A DNA stretch of 24,409 nucleotides from an uncultured Elusimicrobia bacterium (GCA_964359975.1 CAYHWZ010000001.1:1-24409); one strand, 5' to 3'. Counted from the stretch's first letter, positions 1-13,381 are shown. Numbers and translations: made by a program. The notes: generated by a model from the sequence alone, not told the origin.

Positions 1-1141
1 TGCCCATCAGCGCAGGCAAAATCGGCCGCAACGGAGCAAGACGCGGGTCATTTTCAAAATCTTCGATAAGGAGCGGTTCCTCGATGGACGCAACCGAACT
101 GTGCCCGTTGGCCCCAATCCCTGCGATAGGTATTTCCTGCGAAACCGCCATTTCAATTCCCTGAACATTGACGCAGTTCAGTCTGCCGCTTTCGTTGATC
201 AAAAACAGCGCGCCGCGTTCCATTTTGCCCACGCGCCGGAACACGTCCAGCACTTTTTTTTCAAGTATCGGCATTTCCAGCACGGAGGAAAGTTCCTGCG
301 CCGCCTGGTTCAGCGCATAGAGGTCAACGCGCATGCTTTCCAGATAACGGATGTTGGAAATGAGGTCCGCCTGCAGAGTTTCCGCGTTGGCTGGTTTCAT
401 GCCGAGTCCCATGGCCGGGCAGATTGTGAGAAAATCACAGCTCTTGCACACGTCGCCCGGAGTGGGGGCATACTTTTGTTCTTTGCGGATGGTTTCCACG
501 TGCCGGCTAATTTCACGTTCCACGGTCTGGATTTCTTCGGGAGTTTTTCTGATGGTGAGCTGCTCGTTGTCCATGAGGAAAAATATGGTCCCCTGCGACG
601 GCATGAACCGCAATTTTTTCCAGCAGGCCAGAAAGTAGAGCGCCATCTGGAAATCGTAGTCCTCTTTCTCAATGCCCGGATGCGATTTGGCGACTTTGTA
701 GTGAATGACTTCGTGGCTGCCGTCGGGCAATTTGTCGATGCGGTCTATGCGTCCGGTCAGATTAAATCCCGGCAGCGCGATGCGGAAAAATTCTTCGATG
801 AATTCAGCTTCGCCTTTGCGGTCATTGGAATTGAGAAAGTTGGATACCGCGGCCATGGCCTGCGACTTGTAGCTGGCTTCTTCTTCCTGTGAATCGTATC
901 CGGTGGAAATCCAGTTTTCCCTGAGCAGCGACTGGAGTTTTGCGAGCGAACGCTCGGCGGGTTCTTTGACGGAATAAAATTTGCTGAGAGACTGATGGAG
1001 GGACCGTCCGACGGAAAAATAGGCGCGTTCGCGCTGATAGAGCGCGGCCAGGCGGTCAACATATTTAAATTTATATTTCTGCGGACAGTCCAGAAATGTT
1101 CGCAGTGAGGTGTAGCTGACGGATATTTCCAGCGGACTCAC
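1..1141 (-). CDS. PD-(D/E)XK (RecB/AddB/Cas4-like, 4-Cys Fe-S) nuclease-domain protein fused to a GAF domain; 3' end lies outside the window
   Basis: Hand translation from GTG at 1141 (RBS AAGGGG upstream) is open for 380 codons to the window edge: MSPLEISVSYTSLRTFLDCPQKYKFKY...GRSLH...LTGRIDRIDKLPDGSHEVIHYK...FQMALY...CKSCDFLTICP, then LYALNQAAQELSSVLEM...ERGALFLINESG...PLLIEDFENDPRL (GAF-like). The listed + ORF 101..892 is its exact antisense shadow. Confidence 0.85.
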   Translation of the reverse strand, partial: MSPLEISVSYTSLRTFLDCPQKYKFKYVDRLAALYQRERAYFSVGRSLHQSLSKFYSVKEPAERSLAKLQSLLRENWISTGYDSQEEEASYKSQAMAAVSNFLNSNDRKGEAEFIEEFFRIALPGFNLTGRIDRIDKLPDGSHEVIHYKVAKSHPGIEKEDYDFQMALYFLACWKKLRFMPSQGTIFFLMDNEQLTIRKTPEEIQTVEREISRHVETIRKEQKYAPTPGDVCKSCDFLTICPAMGLGMKPANAETLQADLISNIRYLESMRVDLYALNQAAQELSSVLEMPILEKKVLDVFRRVGKMERGALFLINESGRLNCVNVQGIEMAVSQEIPIAGIGANGHSSVASIEEPLLIEDFENDPRLAPLRPILPALMG

Positions 1142-1187: not shown

Positions 1188-1339
1188 TAGCACGGGCTCC
1201 CCCGTCCTGTTGATTCATTTTCGGGGATATTGGATAATAGGAGATAGTGAATAATCGTGTAAGAACTACGCAGTCGGACACACACCACTGATATCTCTAA
1301 CTTTGAAATGTTTTTGGCAGTGAAAATAGTTAGAAAATT

Positions 1340-1364
1340 AAAAAGTCAAGAGCGGCACCGTTTC
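1340..1364 (+). repeat. Left island-boundary repeat (copy A)
   Basis: AAAAAGTCAAGAGCGGCACCGTTTC; 23/25 identical to the reverse complement of 4573-4597. Confidence 0.85.
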
Positions 1365-1511
1365 TATATCGCCGAACAGAACAAGAAAGGCAAAAAGTTG
1401 TAGGGCGGAATTGTACTTAAAGAAAAGAATAGTTGGCGCTATCACGATGGGGCGAAATATGAATACAATCCAAACAAACTGAAAGATTGGAAGTTTCTGG
1501 ATTTGAACTAA
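1365..1511 (+). pseudogene. Truncated C-terminal remnant resembling a type III restriction (Res-like) subunit, with an internal TAG
   Basis: Reads YIAEQNKKGKKL*GGIVLKEKNSWRYHDGAKYEYNPNKLKDWKFLDLN* (TAG at 1401-1403). It begins right at repeat A and ends 4 nt before the Shedu ATG. The family call is from recalled resemblance only. Confidence 0.45.
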
Positions 1512-1515
1512 ATTT

Positions 1516-2547
1516 ATGGCAACGATTAAGAAAACTGACGGCGGAATAGAGTATCTATTTGGATTACTGAAAGAAAAAACAAAGACAGTCACTCGTGCCG
1601 CTTTTTGGAAAATCCCCCACAAAAACAGCCAGCATGAGGATATTTGTCTCAAGATCGGCAGATATAACAAAAACGGTTTTGCACCCGAAACACTTGAAAA
1701 TACAAATCCAAAAAGCGAGCTTACCTCAGACAATGAGGAGTTTCAAAAATTGCTTGAGTTTTTGTCGGATAACTACGAGCCGTTTAAGAAAGGGGTCAAG
1801 AAATATATCCCGCTCAATGAGAAGTTTGACCAAAAGAGAATTGAACATCTGAAAGCAATTTTTGATAATCCTGACAAGCAAACAGTTTTAGACTTCATAG
1901 CAAAGAACAACATATTGCCCGATGACTTGATTGCAGGATTGCAAAATCAAGCGCGAATGAACTCTGTTCGGGAATTTAAAACCATGCTCGACCAAAATTT
2001 AGTTGAGCAGAAATGGCAAGAATGGTTAAAGCAGAATGATTGGGTACTCGGAAGCGAGTTTGTGAGGATTTTGGACGAGCGGGAAATAGATACTGCAAAC
2101 ATTACAGATTATTTAATGCAAGCGTATGACGGCTTTCTTGATATTGTTGAGATAAAGCGACCAGATGGAAGTTTGCGATTTTGGGCCGATGGTCAAGATC
2201 ATGGAAACTATGTGCCATCTTCTGATCTGACGAAAGCCGTCACGCAGGCGACTAAATATATTTACGAAGTTGAGCGAGAAGCAAACAGCGTAAAATTTTT
2301 GGAACGGGTCGGCAATGTCAAAACTATAAAACCACGCTGTATTTTGATTTATGGAAGATCGAATGATTGGAATGACGAACAAAAAGAAGCATATCGTATT
2401 TTGAACTCCAGCTATCATAATTTAGCGATAATGACTTACGACCATGTTTTGGCGCGAGCCAAACGTATTTTGGGAATTGACGAGTCAGAAGAAATAAATC
2501 AAAATACAGACGCAGAAGAAATGAACATTGCCGATATTCCATTTTAG
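1516..2547 (+). CDS. sduA: Shedu anti-phage nuclease (DUF4263 C-terminal domain)
   Basis: E.KWQEWLKQNDWVLG, TDYLM..YDGFLDIVEIKRP (PD-(D/E)XK core), AVTQATKY, ILIYGRS and IMTYDHVLARA motifs typical of DUF4263/Shedu; variable N-terminal domain. Confidence 0.85.
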   Translation: MATIKKTDGGIEYLFGLLKEKTKTVTRAAFWKIPHKNSQHEDICLKIGRYNKNGFAPETLENTNPKSELTSDNEEFQKLLEFLSDNYEPFKKGVKKYIPLNEKFDQKRIEHLKAIFDNPDKQTVLDFIAKNNILPDDLIAGLQNQARMNSVREFKTMLDQNLVEQKWQEWLKQNDWVLGSEFVRILDEREIDTANITDYLMQAYDGFLDIVEIKRPDGSLRFWADGQDHGNYVPSSDLTKAVTQATKYIYEVEREANSVKFLERVGNVKTIKPRCILIYGRSNDWNDEQKEAYRILNSSYHNLAIMTYDHVLARAKRILGIDESEEINQNTDAEEMNIADIPF

Positions 2548-2635
2548 GTCCGTCAAAAATTCCGTCCGTCCAAGCGAGGGCATAGCGGAGGGGGGGGCTG
2601 CCATGCCCGAGCGAAATTAAATTGTGAACAGCCCC

Positions 2636-2768
2636 GCCGTTCTGCTCGAAGAAGCAGGAGACCACAGAAAAATACTCTTTTTATTAGAAAAAAAGAAATC
2701 CGGCACGCGCAAAATGAAAAAGGCAAAGAGTATTTTTCTGTGGTGATGCGAGCAGAGCGAGTAACGGC
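2636..2768. repeat. Long nested imperfect palindrome in the intergenic spacer
   Basis: Perfect 20-bp IR ACCACAGAAAAATACTCTTT (2661-2680)/AAAGAGTATTTTTCTGTGGT (2725-2744), plus outer pairs TCTGCTCG (2641-2648)/CGAGCAGA (2749-2756) and GCCGT (2636-2640)/ACGGC (2764-2768). Confidence 0.85.
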
Positions 2769-2788
2769 AGCAAATAGGGAGGTTCAAA

Positions 2789-3619
2789 ATGATGCTAGTT
2801 AAAATATTACTTATAGCAATTTGCATTCAAGTCATACAAAGCACAGATTTAGTTATTCTTGCTTTTGATAATAGACCAGCCAAAAACCTATCTAAAGACA
2901 AAGAAGATGAAGTAGGCCAAAAGGAATTTGAGCAAATGAAAAAGAATAAACCCAAAGATTATCAGCAACTTGTCATGTCAATACAAGCTGTCCTTGGCAG
3001 ACTTGGTTATGGAACCGGTCCGTTTACAGGGATTATGGATGAAAAAACCAGAACAGCCATACAGAAGTATCAATCAAATGCTGGCTTAAAGCAATCCGAA
3101 GATTTGGATTATTTAACATTTAAGAAACTTATGGATGACATGGAAGCAACGGAAGCCCTCCCTGTTGGCCTTCCTTCTCTGTCCGTTTATGTTGATATGT
3201 GGAATGATTTTGCATCGGCTCAAGGTACATGGGTTATATCAAATGAAAAACAAGCTTTCCCATTGCAAACAACTAAGATAACTTGTTATCGTGAATCTAA
3301 CTCTTGCATTGAAACAACCGCAGTGATCATGCTTGGGAAGTCTCTAACTCTCGACTCTAATTTTATAGGTGTTGAAAGATGGGATAATTTTGAAATTGTT
3401 ACAAAACCGTATGATTATCTGTGTACACGTTATGTTATTCGAATTAATAAAGCTCAAAAAACCGTGACGGCAATACGATCCACTTTAAATTCAAAAGAGG
3501 TTTGCGAGGGCGTGGAAGGCAAGGAAATGCATCTCACATTAAGTGACGGATTTAAGGTCTGGTGGGAATTAGAGGAAACGCGAAGGGCAGTTATGAAAAA
3601 GGTGCTGCTGATTGATTAA
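2789..3619 (+). CDS. Secreted protein with a peptidoglycan-binding (PG_binding_1-like) domain and an unknown Cys-containing C-terminal domain
   Basis: Hydrophobic N-terminus; IQAVLGRLGYGTGPFTGIMDEKTRTAIQKYQSNAGL matches the PG-binding consensus; RBS GGGAGG. Confidence 0.8.
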   Translation: MMLVKILLIAICIQVIQSTDLVILAFDNRPAKNLSKDKEDEVGQKEFEQMKKNKPKDYQQLVMSIQAVLGRLGYGTGPFTGIMDEKTRTAIQKYQSNAGLKQSEDLDYLTFKKLMDDMEATEALPVGLPSLSVYVDMWNDFASAQGTWVISNEKQAFPLQTTKITCYRESNSCIETTAVIMLGKSLTLDSNFIGVERWDNFEIVTKPYDYLCTRYVIRINKAQKTVTAIRSTLNSKEVCEGVEGKEMHLTLSDGFKVWWELEETRRAVMKKVLLID

Positions 3620-3637
3620 TTCACATGACAACAGTCT

Positions 3638-3664
3638 GTGCCGCTTTTAAATTTTTGATTTTTT
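3638..3664 (-). repeat. Degenerate third copy (C) of the island-boundary motif
   Basis: GTGCCGCTTTTAAATTTTTGATTTTTT vs GTGCCGCTCCTGACTTTTTGACTTTTC (4579-4605): 21/27 identical, same orientation as copy B, 18 bp after the stop of the PG-binding gene. Confidence 0.6.
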
Positions 3665-3682
3665 ACACAATTCCACAGCGTA

Positions 3683-3790
3683 TCACCTGATATTCCTCCG
3701 CGTCAGTTCCACCAGCGGTTTGAAATCCTCGTGGTCGGTTTCGCGGAAGGATTTCAAGTAACTGCCGCGCAATTCCCATGGTCGATAAAT
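3683..3790 (-). pseudogene. Possible C-terminal remnant of a Fic-family (mobile mystery protein B-like) gene
   Basis: ELRGSYLKSFRETDHEDFKPLVELTRR resembles the Fic/MMP-B C-terminal helix pattern (ELR..YI.AL..AD..D..PL..FAR); the upstream part of the ORF is not protein-like. Confidence 0.3.
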
Positions 3791-4033
3791 CCCGCACCGG
3801 ACCAAATCGGCCGCGCATGGACTGCGGGATGAACCTGAAACCTGTGTTGCTTGACTTTTGAGATATTCTCGACTTTTGCTTGTTTTCGTGAGTCTTAGCG
3901 CGAAGCTAATTGACACCATATGTTTTGAATATGGTGAGTAATCCTTTTCGCTAATCACTGTCAATAACTAGGACTCTTGATTCGGCAGAAACCCGACAAA
4001 ACCCGCCGTGATTCTGAAGTTCCCAAAGTCGCC

Positions 4034-4062
4034 TTGACGCTCTCCGCCATTTGGGGTATACT
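4034..4062 (+). promoter_or_regulatory. sigma70-type promoter of hicBA
   Basis: TTGACG-17 bp-TATACT. Confidence 0.75.
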
Positions 4063-4095
4063 TTACAAAATGGACGCTGAAAAGATGGAGGCACG

Positions 4096-4329
4096 ATGAA
4101 AGCAAAGCATCACCCGTATAAATTTACCGTAGTCATTGAGCAGGACGAGGACGGCGTATTCGTTGCGTCCTGCCCGGCGCTTCAAGGTTGTTACACTCAA
4201 GGCCGCACCTACAAAGAATCCGTCAAAAATATCCGCGACGCAATCAAACTCCATCTGGAAGCCAGAAAAAAAGTGGGCGAGTTCCTGCCGCACGAAGTAG
4301 GAGTTGAAAAAGTACTCGTATCCGCTTAA
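4096..4329 (+). CDS. hicB: HicB-family antitoxin (short, no DNA-binding tail)
   Basis: FTVVIEQDEDGVFVASCPALQGCYTQGRTYKESVKNIRDAIKLHLE; RBS GGAGG. Confidence 0.92.
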   Translation: MKAKHHPYKFTVVIEQDEDGVFVASCPALQGCYTQGRTYKESVKNIRDAIKLHLEARKKVGEFLPHEVGVEKVLVSA

Positions 4330-4335
4330 CCGCTT

Positions 4336-4560
4336 GTGGGAGAACGTCTTTCACCCGCAAGTCCGAAGGAGATTGTCCGCGTCATCCACCGCTTGGGATT
4401 CAGACTCATCCGGCAGAGCGGCAGCCACGCTATATACAAACACGCTGACGGCAGATGGACGACAATCCCGATGCACGCTGGCGACATAGGCAAAGGACTC
4501 CTGCGAAAAATCATCAACGATTTGGATCTGACCGTCGAAGAATTTAACAAAATGAGGTGA
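4336..4560 (+). CDS. hicA: HicA-family mRNA interferase toxin
   Basis: LGFRLIRQSGSHAIYKHADGRWTTIPMHAGDIGKGLLRKI, with the GSH catalytic motif. Confidence 0.92.
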   Translation: MGERLSPASPKEIVRVIHRLGFRLIRQSGSHAIYKHADGRWTTIPMHAGDIGKGLLRKIINDLDLTVEEFNKMR

Positions 4561-4572
4561 ACTCGAAGACCG

Positions 4573-4597
4573 GAAACCGTGCCGCTCCTGACTTTTT
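4573..4597 (-). repeat. Right island-boundary repeat (copy B)
   Basis: GAAACCGTGCCGCTCCTGACTTTTT; inverted partner of 1340-1364; 12 bp after the hicA stop. Confidence 0.85.
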
Positions 4598-4771
4598 GAC
4601 TTTTCAGAATACCTCAGCTCTTATCAGATTTTGACAACCTAAAATTGGAACCAACAACTGCGTAGTTGTTTTGAATCCCGATACATTCACTCGTCTGACC
4701 ACTTGGCAAAAACATCATCCACGCAACGCATTTGATTGCGCGGAACGCATTTTGTATCGTAGATAATACAC

Positions 4772-6913
4772 ATGAAAACGCAAAGTTCTGCAAGCCGTTC
4801 CGCGGCCGCGGCAGTGCTCCTTGTCTGGACCGCGTTTGTGCTGGCTCTCCAGATTCATTGGCTCCGCACTGACACCCGCCCGCCTTCGTGGGACGAGTCG
4901 CACCACCTCCGCCTGTCCGCGCAATATACGGACGAATTTCTTTCCGGGAAATGGGGCCGCATTTTTGAGGAACACTATTTCAATTATCCGCCGCTCTACC
5001 ATTGGACTCTTGCTCCTGTCCTCAAAGTCATGCGCGGCGAATCAGACGCGGCCGGAGCGCTCAATTGTCTGTATCTGCTCCTGCTCATCAGTTCGGTTTT
5101 TTTCACGATAAAATATCTCTGCGATGATGACCCCAATCCGTGGCCGCCGGTCATCGGCGCAGTGATTGTCTCGTCGTATCCGTTCCTTTTCTATATCGGA
5201 CATTTCCCGCTTCTCGACCTGCCGCTGACCGCGTGGACTGCGTTTGGTGTGCTGTGTCTGGCAAGGTGCAACGGGTTCTGCGATAGGCCCTGGTCTGTTC
5301 TGCTCGGTGTTGCATGGGCGTGCGGCAGTATGACCAAGTGGACTTATTTTTCATATATGCTTTTCCCGACGGTGTGGCTTGGGGTGAAATCTTTTCCGCG
5401 GGAAAAACGGAACATCCTGCTTTTTATCTGCACCGCGCTCGTCCTGCTCCTGCCGTGGTATTATCCCAACTATATTTTTGTAATCAGACGGATGCTGATT
5501 TCGAGCGGGTCAGGAGCAATGGAGGGCGACCCGTCTATTTTCCGGCCGGAATCGTGGCTGTGGTACGCGCGCCATTTTCCGATTGAAATGGGATGGTGGG
5601 GTACGGTACTGGCCTGCGCCGGTCTGGTCATCGCCATACGCGACCGCAGATGGGGGGTGCTGGTCGGATGTGTTCTGTTTCCGTACATGTTCTGGAGTTT
5701 GACGAGGAACAAGGATTTGCGTTATATAATGCCGATACTTCCGTCGGTGGCAATATTGAGCGCGCTGGTTTTCCGGCATGTCAAAACGCGCTGGATTGTT
5801 GTATGCGTGATGATATGCGGTGCGCAGTTGGGCTGGTCCGCGCTCGCGCCCATGGGTTCGCGGGGCCCGTCAGCCGCCGGTCACACTTTCCGCCTGTTGG
5901 GAGAGTACGGCGCGTATCCTCCGGTCCGCGAAGACTGGCGCCAAAAAGAAATCCTCGACCGCGTGCTCCAACTTAAAAATCCGGAACGGGACTGGTGCAT
6001 TCTGCGCACGCTCTCGTGGGAACCTTTCCTCAGCAATCTTTCTCTGCGCTATGCGTGCGTGCAATACGGCTGGTACGGACAGATTAAACCGCTCAATTCA
6101 GACTATTCCGAAAAGTTCGCGTTCACTGATTTTATTCTCGACCACACAGATGGCGCAATGGACCGTCAAAGTCAGGACCTGATTAAAAATTCCAAATGGT
6201 TCAAAAAAGTTTTTGAACTGGAAACCGAGTGGCCCATGCCTCCGGGCGCGGGCAAAGCCAGTCTGTATAAACTTGCGCCTCAGATAGTGAATGGTTTCAG
6301 TGCGGAAAAATTAAGGCGCCGTCTGGCAAATACGCCGCTGAACCCTGACTTGAAATTGGGCAAGGTGCGTTTTGATTTTGTCCCAGACCGAGGAGCGCAG
6401 GCGGAAACGGGGCTGTTTGACAAAATTTCCGTGCGTGTGGACGGCGCCGAGTTCCGCGGGTTTCCGCTGGGCAGTCTGGCTGCGGAACTGGAACAAATCC
6501 AGCTGAACCTGCCGCTACTGGATGAGACCGGTGAATTGCAGGTGCTGAGCATGGGACGTCTCACTCCGCATGTGAAGGTGGACGCGGACAAACTGCGCGG
6601 TTTTCTCATGAATCAGGCCGGAAAATATTTGACGGACGCGAAAATCGTGCTGGACAATAACCGTGTGAAAATCGACTGTATGTCGCGTTACGGTTTAAGC
6701 GCGGGCGTGACTGTGGGGCTGGAATTGAACAGAGAAGAAGGTTATATTTTTCAGCGGATTGAGCGGATTAAAATTGGATGGTTCCGCGTGCCGAGATTTC
6801 TCTACAAACATTTTGCGGACCGCAGGCATTCGCTGCTGTCCGGACCGGGCATGCCGTTCGATCTGAATATCCGCAGTCTTGAACTGCAGGGGAATGTACT
6901 GAAAATCAACTGA
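4772..6913 (+). CDS. GT-C fold membrane glycosyltransferase (ArnT/PMT_2-like) with an extended C-terminal soluble domain
   Basis: PPSWDESHH and YFNYPPLYHW loop motifs, LLDLPLTAW, GSMTKWTY, about 10-12 TM segments; beta-rich C-terminal ~230 aa. Confidence 0.85.
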   Translation: MKTQSSASRSAAAAVLLVWTAFVLALQIHWLRTDTRPPSWDESHHLRLSAQYTDEFLSGKWGRIFEEHYFNYPPLYHWTLAPVLKVMRGESDAAGALNCLYLLLLISSVFFTIKYLCDDDPNPWPPVIGAVIVSSYPFLFYIGHFPLLDLPLTAWTAFGVLCLARCNGFCDRPWSVLLGVAWACGSMTKWTYFSYMLFPTVWLGVKSFPREKRNILLFICTALVLLLPWYYPNYIFVIRRMLISSGSGAMEGDPSIFRPESWLWYARHFPIEMGWWGTVLACAGLVIAIRDRRWGVLVGCVLFPYMFWSLTRNKDLRYIMPILPSVAILSALVFRHVKTRWIVVCVMICGAQLGWSALAPMGSRGPSAAGHTFRLLGEYGAYPPVREDWRQKEILDRVLQLKNPERDWCILRTLSWEPFLSNLSLRYACVQYGWYGQIKPLNSDYSEKFAFTDFILDHTDGAMDRQSQDLIKNSKWFKKVFELETEWPMPPGAGKASLYKLAPQIVNGFSAEKLRRRLANTPLNPDLKLGKVRFDFVPDRGAQAETGLFDKISVRVDGAEFRGFPLGSLAAELEQIQLNLPLLDETGELQVLSMGRLTPHVKVDADKLRGFLMNQAGKYLTDAKIVLDNNRVKIDCMSRYGLSAGVTVGLELNREEGYIFQRIERIKIGWFRVPRFLYKHFADRRHSLLSGPGMPFDLNIRSLELQGNVLKIN

Positions 6914-6980: not shown

Positions 6981-7080
6981 CGTCATTCCCGCGAAAGCGG
7001 GAATCCAGAGAGATACAGAGTTTGAAACTTTCCTCGAAGGCCACTTTAAAGACTGGATTCCCGCTTTCGCGGGAATGACG
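6981..7080. repeat. REP-like doublet (perfect 28-bp inverted repeat, each arm itself palindromic)
   Basis: CGTCATTCCCGCGAAAGCGGGAATCCAG (6981-7008) and CTGGATTCCCGCTTTCGCGGGAATGACG (7053-7080), between convergent genes. Confidence 0.92.
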
Positions 7081-9379: not shown

Positions 9380-11091
9380 TTTTTGAGAAATGTCACCATC
9401 AGGCCTGCGGCCTCCTGCACCGAAACCGCTTTTCCCGGAATCTCAGGTCCCGGCATGTGCGCGCCGATATAAACGTACCGGTCCAGCGCGCGGACATGTT
9501 CCGTATACGTCGGGTACCGGTCCGGTCCGCTCGACGGTGCGATTATCACCCGTTCGTCCGTCAAGAGAGTCACATAATATGCGGTCCAGTAGTCGGCATA
9601 TCCGCCGTCCGCGCTGTTTTCCAGCAGGATTTTGGCGGTCTGTTCATAAGGATTCAACAATTCGCGCGTCTGCCATTTCCGCACATTGGCCGTGACCTGG
9701 GCCGTCAGGAGCAAAAGCAAAAGCATGATGCCCGCAATTTTGTTCCGCACAAAAATATCTTTTAAAATCTAGACGATGCCGAGCGGCAGACAGAAATACA
9801 GCGGCACCATGTACCGCAGAGACGAAACGTCCGCCAGCTGGTTGCAGAACGTGCCGAGCGCAATCGTGCAAACCGCCAGACTCAGCAGCGTAAATTCCGC
9901 AGGCAGAGGTTTGTCCTGCAAAATGCGTTCCCGGACAGCGCGGAACCATTTCCAAAATAGAACTGCAAATCCCGCGCTTACTGCCAAAGTTCCGGTGATA
10001 CCCAAAGATTTTACGTCAGTTTCACCCGCCATCCTGGGAATCATTTCAGTCACAGTCATCCTGAAATTCTGCAGAAACACCGGCAGAGATACGAATCCTC
10101 CGGGCGAAGCAGGCGGACGTCCGATAAAATATCCGATTATCGCTGGCAAATACCCGATGAGAAATCCCTGCGCCGCATGTTTGACCGGAGGCATGCCCCA
10201 CAGCGCAAAAATTTGCTGACGGATAAACTTGTGACCCGCGATTACAAAAACCGCGCCGCCCATCAGCAGACTGGATTTGAATATCGGCCAGAAATAAAGT
10301 TTGATTGTCTTGCTGTGCACGGTAAAAATCCAGTCGCCATACAGCCAGAGTACCAGCGCCACTGCAAGATTAGCGCAGTTGTACAGGTTGACCGCCGCGA
10401 GCAGGTACCGGAGCGGAACCGGTACCGGAGCATTTTGCAGGAGCACGAACTCGCGCCATATTTTTTCACGCGAAAATTGTCTCAGCCGGTTCTTAATATC
10501 AGTCCACTGTTCCGGACCTGTCCGTGCGATGAAAAAATGCAAGGCAATGGCCGCCCAAAACAGCGCAATCAGACGGAAATAGTACCAGGAAAAACCCGCC
10601 ACCAGTCCGAATGCGAAAAGCAGTCCGCGATTGCGCGCGCCGTGGGAAATACGCTTCGCCAGCAAAAAGTGCGCCAACCCCAGATTCATTACCAGTATAT
10701 AGTTGTAAGTGGAAAAAGTGATGGACTGGAACGCGGGCGGCGCAAGCGCGAGAATCAGCGTGGAAACCGCCGCAGTCTTTTCATCCGTTATCGCCCGCAG
10801 ATAAAAAAAGTATCCGGTAATCAGTGTAAGCGAAAAAAACAGCGGCAGACAATGCATGACGCACGGAGTCGCGCCCCAAATGCGGAACAGCGGCATCAGC
10901 AATAGCGGGTCGAGCGAACCATAGTACCCTTCGCCCCAATAATAAGGAGCAAATTCTCCGCGCAAAAAATGTTTTGCCATCAGCCCGAGAATCGCCGTAT
11001 CCGAACTGAAAAAAATGTCCCAATAAACCACATACGGGACCCTGATTAAAAACCCCGCGGTCAAAAGCGTGCCCAGCAATAGCGCAGTCAT
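9376..11091 (-). pseudogene. GT-C-like membrane glycosyltransferase interrupted by an in-frame TAG at 9769-9771
   Basis: ORFs 9769..11091 (FSSDTAILGLMAKH, YYWGEGYYGSLDP) and 9376..9750 (GYADYWTAYY...DRYPTY) share a frame and are joined by ATT TTA AAA GAT ATT TTT: ...LPLGIV*ILKDIFVRNKIAGIMLLLL...; 571 aa if read through. Confidence 0.7.
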
Positions 11092-11150
11092 ATAGAGCGC
11101 ACCTTGGGAGGTTCAGACATCCGTCCGTCCGTTATTTGCACCGGCATGAG

Positions 11151-11459
11151 TTACGCGGCGCGGGAATGCAGTACATGCACCTCGCGTTTAAGACGGTCGG
11201 CCAGGCGCGCTTCTTCCCGCTCCAAATCAAAGTGCGACTGCAAATTAAGCCAAAACTGCGGCGAATTGCGGAAATAGCACCCCAAACGCAAAGCAGTGTC
11301 CGCGGAAATGGCTCTTTGACCGTGCACAATCTCGTTTATCCTGCGCGGAGGCACGCTGATATCTTTGGCCAGTCTGTATTGGCTGATTTCAAGCGGTTTC
11401 AGGAAATCATCCATCAGTATTTCGCCCGGGTGAACAGGCGCCATCTTCTTTGTTCTCAT
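11151..11459 (-). CDS. higA: HigA-family HTH antitoxin
   Basis: PVHPGEIL.DDFLKPLEISQYRLAKDISVPPRRINEIVHGQRAISADTALRL...FWLNLQ; ATG at 11459 with RBS AGGAGA. Confidence 0.93.
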   Translation of the reverse strand: MRTKKMAPVHPGEILMDDFLKPLEISQYRLAKDISVPPRRINEIVHGQRAISADTALRLGCYFRNSPQFWLNLQSHFDLEREEARLADRLKREVHVLHSRAA

Positions 11460-11470
11460 TTTATTCTCCT

Positions 11471-11752
11471 TCAATGGTAATCCACAATCTCAACATCGTG
11501 CGCCTGTCCGTCTTCCCACCGGAAGCAGATGCGCCATTGCTGATTTATCCGGATGCTGTGCCGGCCTTTGCGGCTGCCGGACAGCGCTTCAAGCCGGTTG
11601 CCGGGCGGGACTCTGAGGTCATTTAACCCGGTTGCTGCGTCGAGTATTAGCAGTTTCCGCAAAGCAGTCCTCTGGATGTTGTCCGGCAGTCTGCGGGAAA
11701 AGTTTCTCTGAAAAACCGCCGCGGCCTCCTGGTCTCTGAATGAACGGATCAT
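11471..11752 (-). CDS. higB: HigB (RelE/ParE-family) toxin
   Basis: MIRSFRD...RKLLILDAAT.LNDLRVPPGNRLEALSG.RKGRHSIRINQQWRICFRW...VEIVDYH; start at 11752. Confidence 0.93.
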   Translation of the reverse strand: MIRSFRDQEAAAVFQRNFSRRLPDNIQRTALRKLLILDAATGLNDLRVPPGNRLEALSGSRKGRHSIRINQQWRICFRWEDGQAHDVEIVDYH

Positions 11753-11758
11753 GTCCCG

Positions 11759-11787
11759 ATAATAACACATGGCGTTAATAATGTCAA
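11759..11787 (-). promoter_or_regulatory. sigma70-type promoter of higBA (probably a leaderless mRNA)
   Basis: TTGACA-17 bp-TATTAT, 6 nt before the higB ATG; no RBS. Confidence 0.75.
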
Positions 11788-11843
11788 GTGTTATCATCCG
11801 GGGCCGACCTGTCCGTGCTCTTTCCGGTTTTTGCGCCTAACGT

Positions 11844-11872
11844 TTGACGATGCACACGTTCCATGCTATAAT
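11844..11872 (+). promoter_or_regulatory. Near-consensus promoter of the NCS1-hydA operon
   Basis: TTGACG-17 bp-TATAAT with extended -10 TG. Confidence 0.8.
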
Positions 11873-11896
11873 TAAACGCTACATAAAACTATCAAA

Positions 11897-13381
11897 ATGA
11901 ATTCCAACGAAGTTAAAGTGGTCAACGGTATCCATGAACTTACCGCGGACCTTTCGAACTCGCCTTATTGGAACGCGGACATAGCGCCCACGACGGTGGA
12001 TTCGCGCAAATGGGGCACGAAAGATATTGCCGCGCTCTGGATTTCCATGTCCGCATGTGTGCCCACCTATATGCTTGCCTCGTCTCTTATCGCCGAAGGA
12101 ATGAACTGGTGGCAGGCCGTGCTCACTATTTTTCTCGGCAACACAATTGTACTGATTCCCATGGTCTTGAACGCTCATGCGGGCACCAAATACGGGATTC
12201 CGTTTCCGGTCTATTGCCGTTCATCGTTCGGTCTTTTGGGCGCGAATATACCGGCTTTGCTCCGCGCTCTCGTGGCTTGCGGATGGTTCGGTATTCAGGC
12301 GTGGATTGGCGGTTGGGCGATTTACAAGATTCTGACGATTTATTATCCGGCGTGGGAATCTCTGCCCGCTTCGTTCATGGGCATCAACGCGGCTCAGCTC
12401 ATCTGTTTCCTGTTTTTCTGGAGCATCAACATGTTTGTGATTTATAAGGGAATCGAGTCCATCCGCATTTTGCTGAATATCAAAGCGCCCCTGCTGATCG
12501 TGCTCGGACTGGCGCTGCTTGCCTGGGCATATCAGAACGCGGGCGGGTTCGGGCCCATGCTTTCACAGCCGTCAGCATTTGAAATCGGCGGTGCGAAAGA
12601 AGGACAGTTCTGGAAATATTTTTTCCCGTCGCTGACAGCCATGATAGGGTTCTGGGCCACACTTTCCCTCAACATTCCGGATTTCACGCGTTATGCTTAT
12701 TCACAGCGCGACCAGATGATGGGTCAGGCGCTCGGTCTGCCGACCACAATGGGTCTTTACTCTTTTATCGGCGTGGCAGTGACATCGGCGACAGTGGTGA
12801 TTTTCGGCGAGTCCATCTGGGACCCTGTGGTGCTGGTCACCAAGTTTAAGAATCCGGTGGTGCTTGCCGTCTCGCTTTTTGCCTTGTGTCTGGCAACGCT
12901 GGCAACCAATATCGCTGCCAATGTAGTGAGTCCTGCCAACGATTTCGCGCACCTTTGGCCGCAAAAAATCACTTTCCGTATCGGCGGTCTCATTACGGGT
13001 ATTATCGGTATTCTCATCCAGCCGTGGAAACTGGTCTCGGATCCGACCGGATACATTTTTACCTGGCTGGTGGGCTATTCGTCACTGCTGGGCGCCATCG
13101 GCGGCGTGCTCATCTGCGATTATTTCTTTATCCGGAAAACTGTGCTGGACCTCGGCGCTCTCTATCATAACGGCGAATATTATTACAACCGCGGTTTCAA
13201 TCCCAACGCGGTCATCGCGCTTGTGCTCGGTATTCTGCCGAATGTGCCCGGTTTTCTGGGGACTATCCATGCGATGGATGTGTCGCCGTTCTGGATGAAT
13301 CTGTACAGTTACGCCTGGTTCGTCGGATTTGGGGTATCGTTTGCAGTGTATGCTGTGCTGGGGAGAGTAAAAAATGTCTGA
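11897..13381 (+). CDS. NCS1-family nucleobase/hydantoin/allantoin:cation symporter
   Basis: ALWISMSACVPTY, GTKYGIPFPVYCRSSFG, GWFGIQAWIGG, FWATLSLNIPDFTRY, TNIAANVVSPANDF; about 12 TMs. Confidence 0.93.
   Translation: MNSNEVKVVNGIHELTADLSNSPYWNADIAPTTVDSRKWGTKDIAALWISMSACVPTYMLASSLIAEGMNWWQAVLTIFLGNTIVLIPMVLNAHAGTKYGIPFPVYCRSSFGLLGANIPALLRALVACGWFGIQAWIGGWAIYKILTIYYPAWESLPASFMGINAAQLICFLFFWSINMFVIYKGIESIRILLNIKAPLLIVLGLALLAWAYQNAGGFGPMLSQPSAFEIGGAKEGQFWKYFFPSLTAMIGFWATLSLNIPDFTRYAYSQRDQMMGQALGLPTTMGLYSFIGVAVTSATVVIFGESIWDPVVLVTKFKNPVVLAVSLFALCLATLATNIAANVVSPANDFAHLWPQKITFRIGGLITGIIGILIQPWKLVSDPTGYIFTWLVGYSSLLGAIGGVLICDYFFIRKTVLDLGALYHNGEYYYNRGFNPNAVIALVLGILPNVPGFLGTIHAMDVSPFWMNLYSYAWFVGFGVSFAVYAVLGRVKNV

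Follow-up and report, generated by a model that had tools for sequence, protein, structure and literature searches.

The window analysed here is a stretch of 24,409 nucleotides (GCA_964359975.1, CAYHWZ010000001.1:1-24409) from an uncultured Elusimicrobia bacterium, whose metagenome-assembled genome (MAG) comprises 2.59 Mb in 467 contigs and is 86.6% complete. Between two native genes, the window carries an island with a Shedu nuclease gene, a gene for a PG-binding-domain protein and the toxin-antitoxin pair hicBA, bracketed by inverted copies of a 25-nt motif. We consider it very probable that this motif is the terminal inverted repeat (TIR) arm of a TIRtron, or TIRYT (TIR-associated tyrosine transposase), encoded on another contig, C158, around a Y1/HUH transposase with a C-terminal helix-turn-helix (HTH) that resembles the REP-associated tyrosine transposases (RAYT; REP, repetitive extragenic palindrome). 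A first-pass annotation, made from the window sequence alone, had proposed a previously unrecognised cassette-capture system. Under the assignment given here the motif is instead an end of a known kind of mobile element (PMC3733652, PMC6006769), an outcome that the annotation had itself named beforehand as refuting its proposal.

The two bracketing copies, A (1340-1364, minus strand) and B (4573-4597, plus strand), differ at two of 25 positions, just as first described. A repeat finder extends them to 31-nt arms (1334-1364 and 4573-4603) that lie 3,208 nt apart, are 87% complementary with 27 of 31 nt in common, and form the second-longest inverted repeat of the window. For the core octamer GTGCCGCT, 0.72 occurrences would be expected in the window; there are five, a number reached by none of 100 shuffles. 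The consensus of the repeat is GAAAC-GTGCCGCTCTTGAC-TTTTTGACTTTT, or (G)GAAAC(G)GTGCCGCTCTTGACTTTTTGACTTTT in profile form; we call its GAAAC side the head and its T-rich side the tail. The genome scan that the annotation had called for revealed a dispersed, non-random repeat: the 25-mer pattern has 10 matches at three mismatches or fewer, compared with none for the reversed control, and with a profile made from these copies nhmmer detects 15 at E <= 3e-5, plus about five of lower score. Copy A matches the pattern without mismatch (35.9 bits, E 6.5e-9, match spanning 1329-1365), and copy B scores 40.4 bits (E 2.5e-10, match spanning 4569-4608). Twelve copies in the genome lie 2-172 nt past the stop codon of a same-strand gene. 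In 40 relatives, 11 of the same family and the rest of the same class, the motif was not found, apart from one two-mismatch match that we take as chance; this makes the repeat specific to its lineage and speaks against a conserved regulatory site.

The cognate gene is at C158:2943-3878 and encodes a 311-aa Y1/HUH transposase. It is flanked by two motif arms, at 2908-2932 (plus) and 3914-3938 (minus), with their tails inwards, and copy A aligns with both. The protein matches Y1_Tnp (PF01797) at 2.5e-14 and passes the NCBIfam model for REP-associated tyrosine transposases, NF047646 (89.4 bits, cut-off 80); on the IS200 model NF033573 it stays below the cut-off of 55, with 18.7 bits. In an alignment with E. 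coli TnpA-REP (PDB 4ER8), its HFH motif corresponds to HMH (the HUH motif) and its Tyr119 to the catalytic Tyr115. The C-terminal half has weak winged-helix matches, to HTH_24 (8e-4) and HTH_23 (0.022), both below the Pfam cut-offs. Each arm consists of the head GAAAC-GGTGCCGC followed by two tandem 9-mers, TTGACTTTT and TGACTTTT. Most dispersed copies derive from the GAAAC-bearing arm, that is, the arm upstream of the transposase gene, and many have tails of 100-180 nt, of two types that we call T1 and T2. This is the single gene of its clade in the genome; a second, different Y1 gene is located on C141. The motif is thus tied to one transposase family, and it is the Y1/RAYT family that the annotation had listed among its candidates. 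Its remark that the window itself lacks a recombinase holds for every large open reading frame (ORF) scanned.

The pairing of transposase and repeat extends beyond this genome. In an exact scan of one genome per species, the 19-mer core occurs repeatedly in one other organism, Candidatus Lindowbacteria bacterium RIFCSPLOWO2_12_FULL_62_27; the remaining matches are single and about the number expected by chance. The Lindowbacteria genome has 17 motif copies at two mismatches or fewer, against none for the control, and an orthologue of 313 aa and 56% identity that is flanked by the motif in the same geometry as on C158. Its C-terminus matches Bac_DnaA_C (0.008), and many of the homologues listed carry PF08299. 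Four pairs of Lindowbacteria copies are tail-to-tail doublets, and the one that was folded is a perfect hairpin (dG -28.2 kcal/mol, z -10.35). Eight Lindowbacteria paralogues are about 30% identical; none of the five fetched is flanked by the motif.

Further orthologues were recovered from metagenomes and from the same phylum, and the inverted-arm geometry is kept in four orthologues, whose repeats are identical in type or co-vary, and in two paralogues, which have other arms of that design. At 54% identity, P0128 has the arm GTGCCGCTCTTGATTTTTTGAC, of the same type as C158, whereas the tandem 9-mers co-vary in P0129 (48%, arm GTGCCGCTCTTGACTTGTTGAC) and in P0140 and G050 (47-48%, arm GTGCCAGACTTGAAATTTTCAA). 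In the paralogues G147 and G140 (38-39%), GTGTCAGGC is followed by two other tandem 9-10-mers. Arm types distinguished by their 9-mers include a GTGCCGCTCTTGAC-type and a GTGCCAGACTTGAA-type. Comparison of these arms reveals a design of one conserved head and two tandem 9-10-mers that co-vary with the protein. This is an example of protein-repeat co-evolution, in which the 19-mer is perfectly kept at 54-56% transposase identity and the tandem 9-mers change in more distant orthologues. That the 9-mers change with the protein points to the DnaA-C-like HTH as their reader, a link left open by Quentin et al. (PMC6006769).

Two observations concern the origin of the Lindowbacteria unit. Its transposase gene (in locus L059, C1:96837-100769) has about 50% GC in a genome of 61% GC, and its nearest relative is in the window genome, of 52.5% GC, and not among the 150 same-phylum genomes sampled, where the best match has 47% identity. 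Judged from these sequences, there are hints that the whole transposase unit may have been transferred horizontally between lineages.

Comparison with known systems supports the class assignment. Di Nocera, De Gregorio and Rocco (2013, PMC3733652) describe TIRtrons as RAYT-like genes flanked by long inverted repeats rather than by REP hairpins, with moderately abundant TIR families, single, dimeric or grouped, in some genomes. Long TnpA-REP proteins with Bac_DnaA_C, HTH_23 or HTH_28 tails form subclass 2.1 of Quentin et al. (2018, PMC6006769), where they are equated with TIRYTs. Like these, the C158 element has a Y1/HUH transposase of about 310 aa with a C-terminal DnaA-C-like HTH, its gene is enclosed by long inverted repeats whose single arms do not fold, the repeat is also a moderately abundant family of single and paired copies, and in relatives a single genome has several divergent paralogues, each paired with a separate repeat. 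It differs in that the dispersed copies come mostly from the GAAAC arm, many with the long tails mentioned above. Every structural feature of a TIRtron is present on C158 except a good match to the GGGGWSAS box.

A further comparison is with the REP/REPIN-RAYT systems. The classical repeat unit of those systems is a palindrome of 20-40 nt, usually GTAG-tagged and often found in hairpin-forming doublets. Shared with them (Nunvar 2010; Bertels and Rainey 2011, PMC3116915) are the homologous HUH/Tyr core, a single cognate transposase gene between copies of its repeat, and lineage-specific extragenic repeats mostly just past genes; the Lindowbacteria arms even form REPIN-like folding tail-to-tail doublets. 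In contrast, the unit in the window genome is non-palindromic, has no GTAG tag and was not found in close doublets, there are about 20 copies rather than hundreds, and the C158 protein is twice as long. With IS200/IS605 elements (IS608, ISDra2) the transposase shares the Y1 HUH superfamily and, by analogy, single-strand cut-and-join chemistry would be expected. Unlike C158, those elements have asymmetric subterminal hairpins, no inverted ends, multiple copies and a short transposase of about 150 aa.

The annotation had also drawn a likeness to an integron array. Accessory genes, including a toxin-antitoxin pair, are each trailed by a shared repeat in the same orientation (copies 3 and 4, described below, and copy B), and the enzyme is encoded elsewhere. 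However, the TIR copies are scattered over many loci instead of one array, and the enzyme is an HUH Y1 transposase, not a tyrosine recombinase. The best match to the integron integrase model TIGR02249 in the window genome, at the completeness given above, reaches 78.9 bits against a cut-off of 265. The motif has no attC fold, and the TAGAAAC / GTTTCTA junctions do not fit the RYYYAAC / GTTRRRY (R''/R') boxes.

Several points weigh against the TIRtron assignment or limit it. The box of the C158 arm, GGTGCCGC, agrees with GGGGWSAS at five of eight positions. The box is found in many published TIRs, a majority but not all (PMC3733652), and among the relatives it agrees at eight of eight positions in the upstream arm of P0140 (GGGGTCAG) and at seven of eight in the G147 arm (GGTGTCAG); the G140 arm shares the GTGTCAG core. 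The head box of C158 may be a diverged form of it. The window-genome arms form no hairpin (z >= -0.5), and consequently the single-strand hairpin mechanism of RAYT and IS200/IS605 systems is not simply transferable. Transposition, cleavage and binding by the C158 enzyme are putative. A one-sided association of the heads with low-GC DNA, set out below, is not predicted by plain REP-like spreading, nor is it described in the parts of PMC3733652 and PMC6006769 available, and the Lindowbacteria copies sampled have no low-GC bias. Finally, because the MAG is fragmented, copy numbers and pairings in the window genome are lower bounds.

The association itself is clear. We compared 600-nt flanks using a threshold of 43% GC or less, and 13 of 19 head-side flanks are at or below it, compared with 2.4% of all 600-nt windows of the genome (binomial 2e-17). 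On the tail side only 4 of 18 TIR copies do so, and none of the 45 flanks of a second repeat family, a CGTC-tagged hairpin. The low-GC stretch at the heads extends over 1-3 kb and then returns to about 53%. The suggestion that copies sit at the edges of accessory genes is thereby borne out, the genes concerned being of low GC. Five copies have heads facing native genes of normal GC. In the low-GC islets on C16 (~11.5-12.1 kb) and C78 (~4.9-5.5 kb), both of which adjoin TIR heads, we also observed a common segment of 621 nt with 91.6% identity.

In the window, the left boundary is exact. The first foreign base is 1365, directly adjoining the head of copy A, and from there to 2483 the DNA has 80% homology to an Omnitrophota-labelled contig. 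The gene fragment noticed there in the first pass (1365-1511, plus strand, in-frame TAG at 1401-1403) consists of the last 48 codons of a DEAD/ResIII helicase gene. In loci L072/L073 a 745-aa helicase is encoded ahead of Shedu, and its C-terminus is identical to the fragment at 40 of 48 residues. Since the cut in the helicase gene coincides exactly with the head of copy A, the edge of the repeat was the precise end point of at least one rearrangement, be it a deletion, recombination between repeats or joining. The GAAAC head of copy A, at 1364, points into the island; that of copy B lies 12 nt past the hicA stop, and its tail is directed at the native PMT/LmeA membrane protein gene (4772-6913).

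Copy A belongs to a longer T1 element (1202-1364, minus strand), delimited by blastn against the own genome, with a tail of about 140 nt that separates the island from the native PD-(D/E)XK/GAF nuclease gene (2-1141, minus strand). The T1 tail recurs on C16, C19, C20, C218 and C137 with 82-91% identity over 53-113 nt, and the three T1-type copies in the window, on C16 and on C19 adjoin the 5' end of a gene transcribed away from the repeat. It includes the 11-mer AACTACGCAGT at 1264-1274, whose reverse complement is indeed present at 4657-4667 in the tail of copy B; the two are 76 and 70 nt from the cores, and copies A and B also share a GAT..TTCACT stretch. The tail of copy B is similar to that of the C180 copy (81% over 59 nt, blastn).

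A third copy had been reported behind the PG-binding gene, and we consider it probably real, though weak (3636-3666, plus strand; nhmmer 16.1 bits, E 0.012 genome-wide). This degenerate TIR, 12-18 nt beyond the PG-binding gene stop and with its head towards the low-GC island, probably marks the right edge of the 38%-GC segment, since GC there climbs from about 38% to about 47%. A fourth, internally deleted candidate ahead of hicB (3834-3863, plus strand; 5.6 bits) is doubtful as a TIR. T2 is a leader repeat of about 180 nt upstream of hicBA (3851-4032, plus strand), with blastn matches of 83-95% identity at C78:3318-3407, C19:8832-8869 and C168:3401-3503; on C19 and C78 it stands behind TIR copies. 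T2 precedes toxin-antitoxin operons of differing families, HicBA in the window and a BrnA-type one on C19, and a small significant hairpin lies within its region (z -2.67 for 3828-3950).

Other readings of the motif were considered. Shuffled sequences fold just as well as the window copies (z -0.5 to +1.3), which excludes a terminator or hairpin, and no known RNA family matches at the motif. T1 has no significant fold either (z +0.4 to +1.3); it may be a decayed hairpin doublet, the arm pairing with a downstream AGAG-containing stretch in one of three folded T1 copies (C19) and none of the three being significant. Sigma-54 and extracytoplasmic function (ECF) promoters, judged by eye, have unsuitable spacing and were set aside.

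Taken as a TIRtron, the locus can be explained as follows. The HUH domain of the C158 enzyme would cut single-stranded DNA at the head, its DnaA-C-like HTH would read the tandem 9-mers, and its activity would have distributed arms over the genome, some solo and some with a tail attached (T1, T2). Copy A would then belong to a T1 unit that lies upstream of the native nuclease gene; hicA would be followed by a solo arm, copy B, and the PG-binding gene by an arm in decay, copy 3. The bracket around the Shedu islet would reflect the general placement of this repeat family, which across the genome is found where foreign low-GC DNA meets native DNA, with the head on the foreign side. Several explanations can be given for this orientation. 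The repeat might insert only at tolerated sites and have a head-side target preference. The heads might be end points of deletions or of recombination between repeats; either would explain the truncated helicase gene. Alternatively, foreign DNA might truly be joined at the heads.

The last option, developed into a system, is the rival that survives best, although we regard it as unlikely. In it the heads of existing TIR copies would be joining sites at which the Y1 transposase, a domesticated HUH enzyme acting in trans, ligates incoming DNA, in the manner of an integron, though the enzyme would be of another class and the site non-attC. That foreign DNA starts at the exact head edge, inside a gene, suggests end-joining over site-neutral insertion, and the orientation of the family, with 13 of 19 heads facing low-GC DNA and tails facing native DNA, is consistent with it, as is the clean control family. 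Head-to-head copies enclose cargo at two loci, the window and C19, the latter a bracket around a single ORF, and in 150 genomes of the phylum the two islet proteins tested hardly occur. Against this, most islets have a recognisable TIR at one end only. No second TIR was found at the far edge of other islets even at permissive thresholds, and no sequence beyond T2 fragments is shared by those edges. The idea that the motif marks the junctions stands for the left one, at the exact edge of copy A; it fails between Shedu and the PG-binding gene, where there is no TIR, and thus the repeat does not mark every cassette junction. The heads that face normal-GC native genes and the unbiased Lindowbacteria sample also argue against capture, and tolerated insertion sites or repeat-ended deletions could yield the same pattern.

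Empty sites bear on the same question. The best match in a same-family genome is 39% identity for the PMT/LmeA gene and about 30% for the nuclease, so that no close relative was found; for the native flank genes, a scan of metagenome contigs gave 24% and a search of 5.8 billion proteins at most 30%. Four groundwater runs hold the organism at a depth of about 2-6. Their contigs span the left junction (1061-1770) and copies 3 and 4 (2635-3953) unchanged, and no island-skipping joint, empty site or circle was seen in them, rare variants being invisible in contigs. The lack of an empty site and of an excision product follows from the lack of close relatives and the low coverage; with neither empty site, excision joint nor close relative, capture is unproven.

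A role as a portable regulatory element is less probable still. The main importance of solo arms and T1/T2 would be to drive or insulate the tail-side native gene, as promoters, -35 boxes or transposase-binding operators, and they would be retained once foreign DNA had broken transcription from upstream. In the arm preceding the C158 gene, as read directly from the sequence, the second TTGACT is followed after 17 nt by a perfect TATAAT that immediately precedes the start codon. For nearly every copy, a co-oriented gene is found about 50-200 nt past the tail, and T1 contains a CTTACA-18-TATTAT match directed at the nuclease gene. However, no conserved -10 follows the solo arms, the tails vary, copy B offers only TCTTAT, and promoter-like matches in the region number 10 compared with 7.0 +/- 3.0 in shuffles, which is no excess.

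Least probable of all is a composite transposon in which copies A and B mobilise the whole 3.2-kb segment of Shedu, PG-binding gene and hicBA as a unit: the inverted copies do match over 27 of 31 nt together with the second 11-mer and the GAT..TTCACT stretch, and C19 has a similar bracket, but the heads point inwards at the island and outwards in five transposase units, so that the island is not simply a cargo-carrying copy of such a unit, and the segment combines parts of 38% and 50% GC into a mosaic, includes further repeat copies and has no second copy in the window genome; no target duplication was seen.

The TIRtron assignment has consequences beyond this locus. TIRtrons were described in 2013, and neither function nor activity is shown in PMC3733652 and PMC6006769. 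If the low-GC association reflects activity of the enzyme rather than tolerance of insertion, such elements would shape where defence and toxin-antitoxin genes sit; and if capture were true, it would explain the 13 of 19 heads that adjoin low-GC islets, the helicase cut at the head and the clean control family. For annotation in general, bracketing repeats should be checked against the Y1 transposases of the genome before a new system is proposed.

Regarding the cargo, Pfam agrees with the genes as first named. The Shedu nuclease gene (SduA_C, 1516-2547, plus strand, ~38% GC) matches PF14082 at 3.9e-26. Its protein is 80-90% identical to ones labelled Flavobacteriaceae, Moranbacteria, Omnitrophota, Parcubacteria and Ignavibacteria, and the gene is horizontally mobile. 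In loci L065-L073 it follows, with a gap of at most 4 nt, varied upstream genes (RE_AlwI, XRE-type HTH, DEAD/ResIII helicase), as if it were a mobile single 3'-terminal gene module. The PG-binding gene (2789-3619, plus strand, low GC; PG_binding_1, 4.8e-9) has no tblastn match in nine Shedu loci and no paralogue in the window genome. As homology with the other Shedu loci stops at the Shedu stop codon and the PG-binding gene does not accompany Shedu elsewhere, the 38%-GC segment is mosaic, composed of two or more foreign pieces. The hicB (4096-4329, HicB_lk_antitox 4.8e-10) and hicA (4336-4560, HicA_toxin 4.3e-18) genes, both on the plus strand, have a near-native GC of about 50% and are preceded by a sigma-70-like promoter match (10/12) at 4034-4062. 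A defence-family scan of ten islet proteins gave weak matches to candidate systems for two proteins only.

Between Shedu and the PG-binding gene lies a structured spacer (2578-2768) with a perfect 20-nt inverted repeat (2661-2680 / 2725-2744), which is not a copy of the motif and occurs at one locus in the window genome. Contig depth over this region (bins 2401-3000) is 31-597 in the four groundwater runs, compared with ~0-8 in most other bins. The spacer probably belongs to a repeat of other, abundant members of the community, perhaps the donor lineage. In one run (X4), a single contig (depth 2, 31 nt on the shorter side) skips 203 nt (4329-4533) and deletes most of hicA; it may be a strain variant or an assembly artefact. 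On C19, the region 9880-12441 beyond the T1 tail contains small HTH genes and a tyrosine recombinase (11380-12441) and looks like the remnant of an integrative element.

The CGTC-tagged family that served as control is present in the window at 6981-7080 as a perfect 28-nt inverted doublet, each arm of which is a hairpin (ATTCCCGC-GAAA-GCGGGAAT). The doublet has about 23-25 copies in the genome, and contig depth over it reaches 400-2800 in the source metagenomes, compared with ~0-8 in most bins. No dedicated transposase for CGTC repeats is reported by Di Nocera et al. (PMC3733652). Here, a variant with compensatory stem changes is located about 75 nt after the second Y1 transposase gene (C141:18-695).

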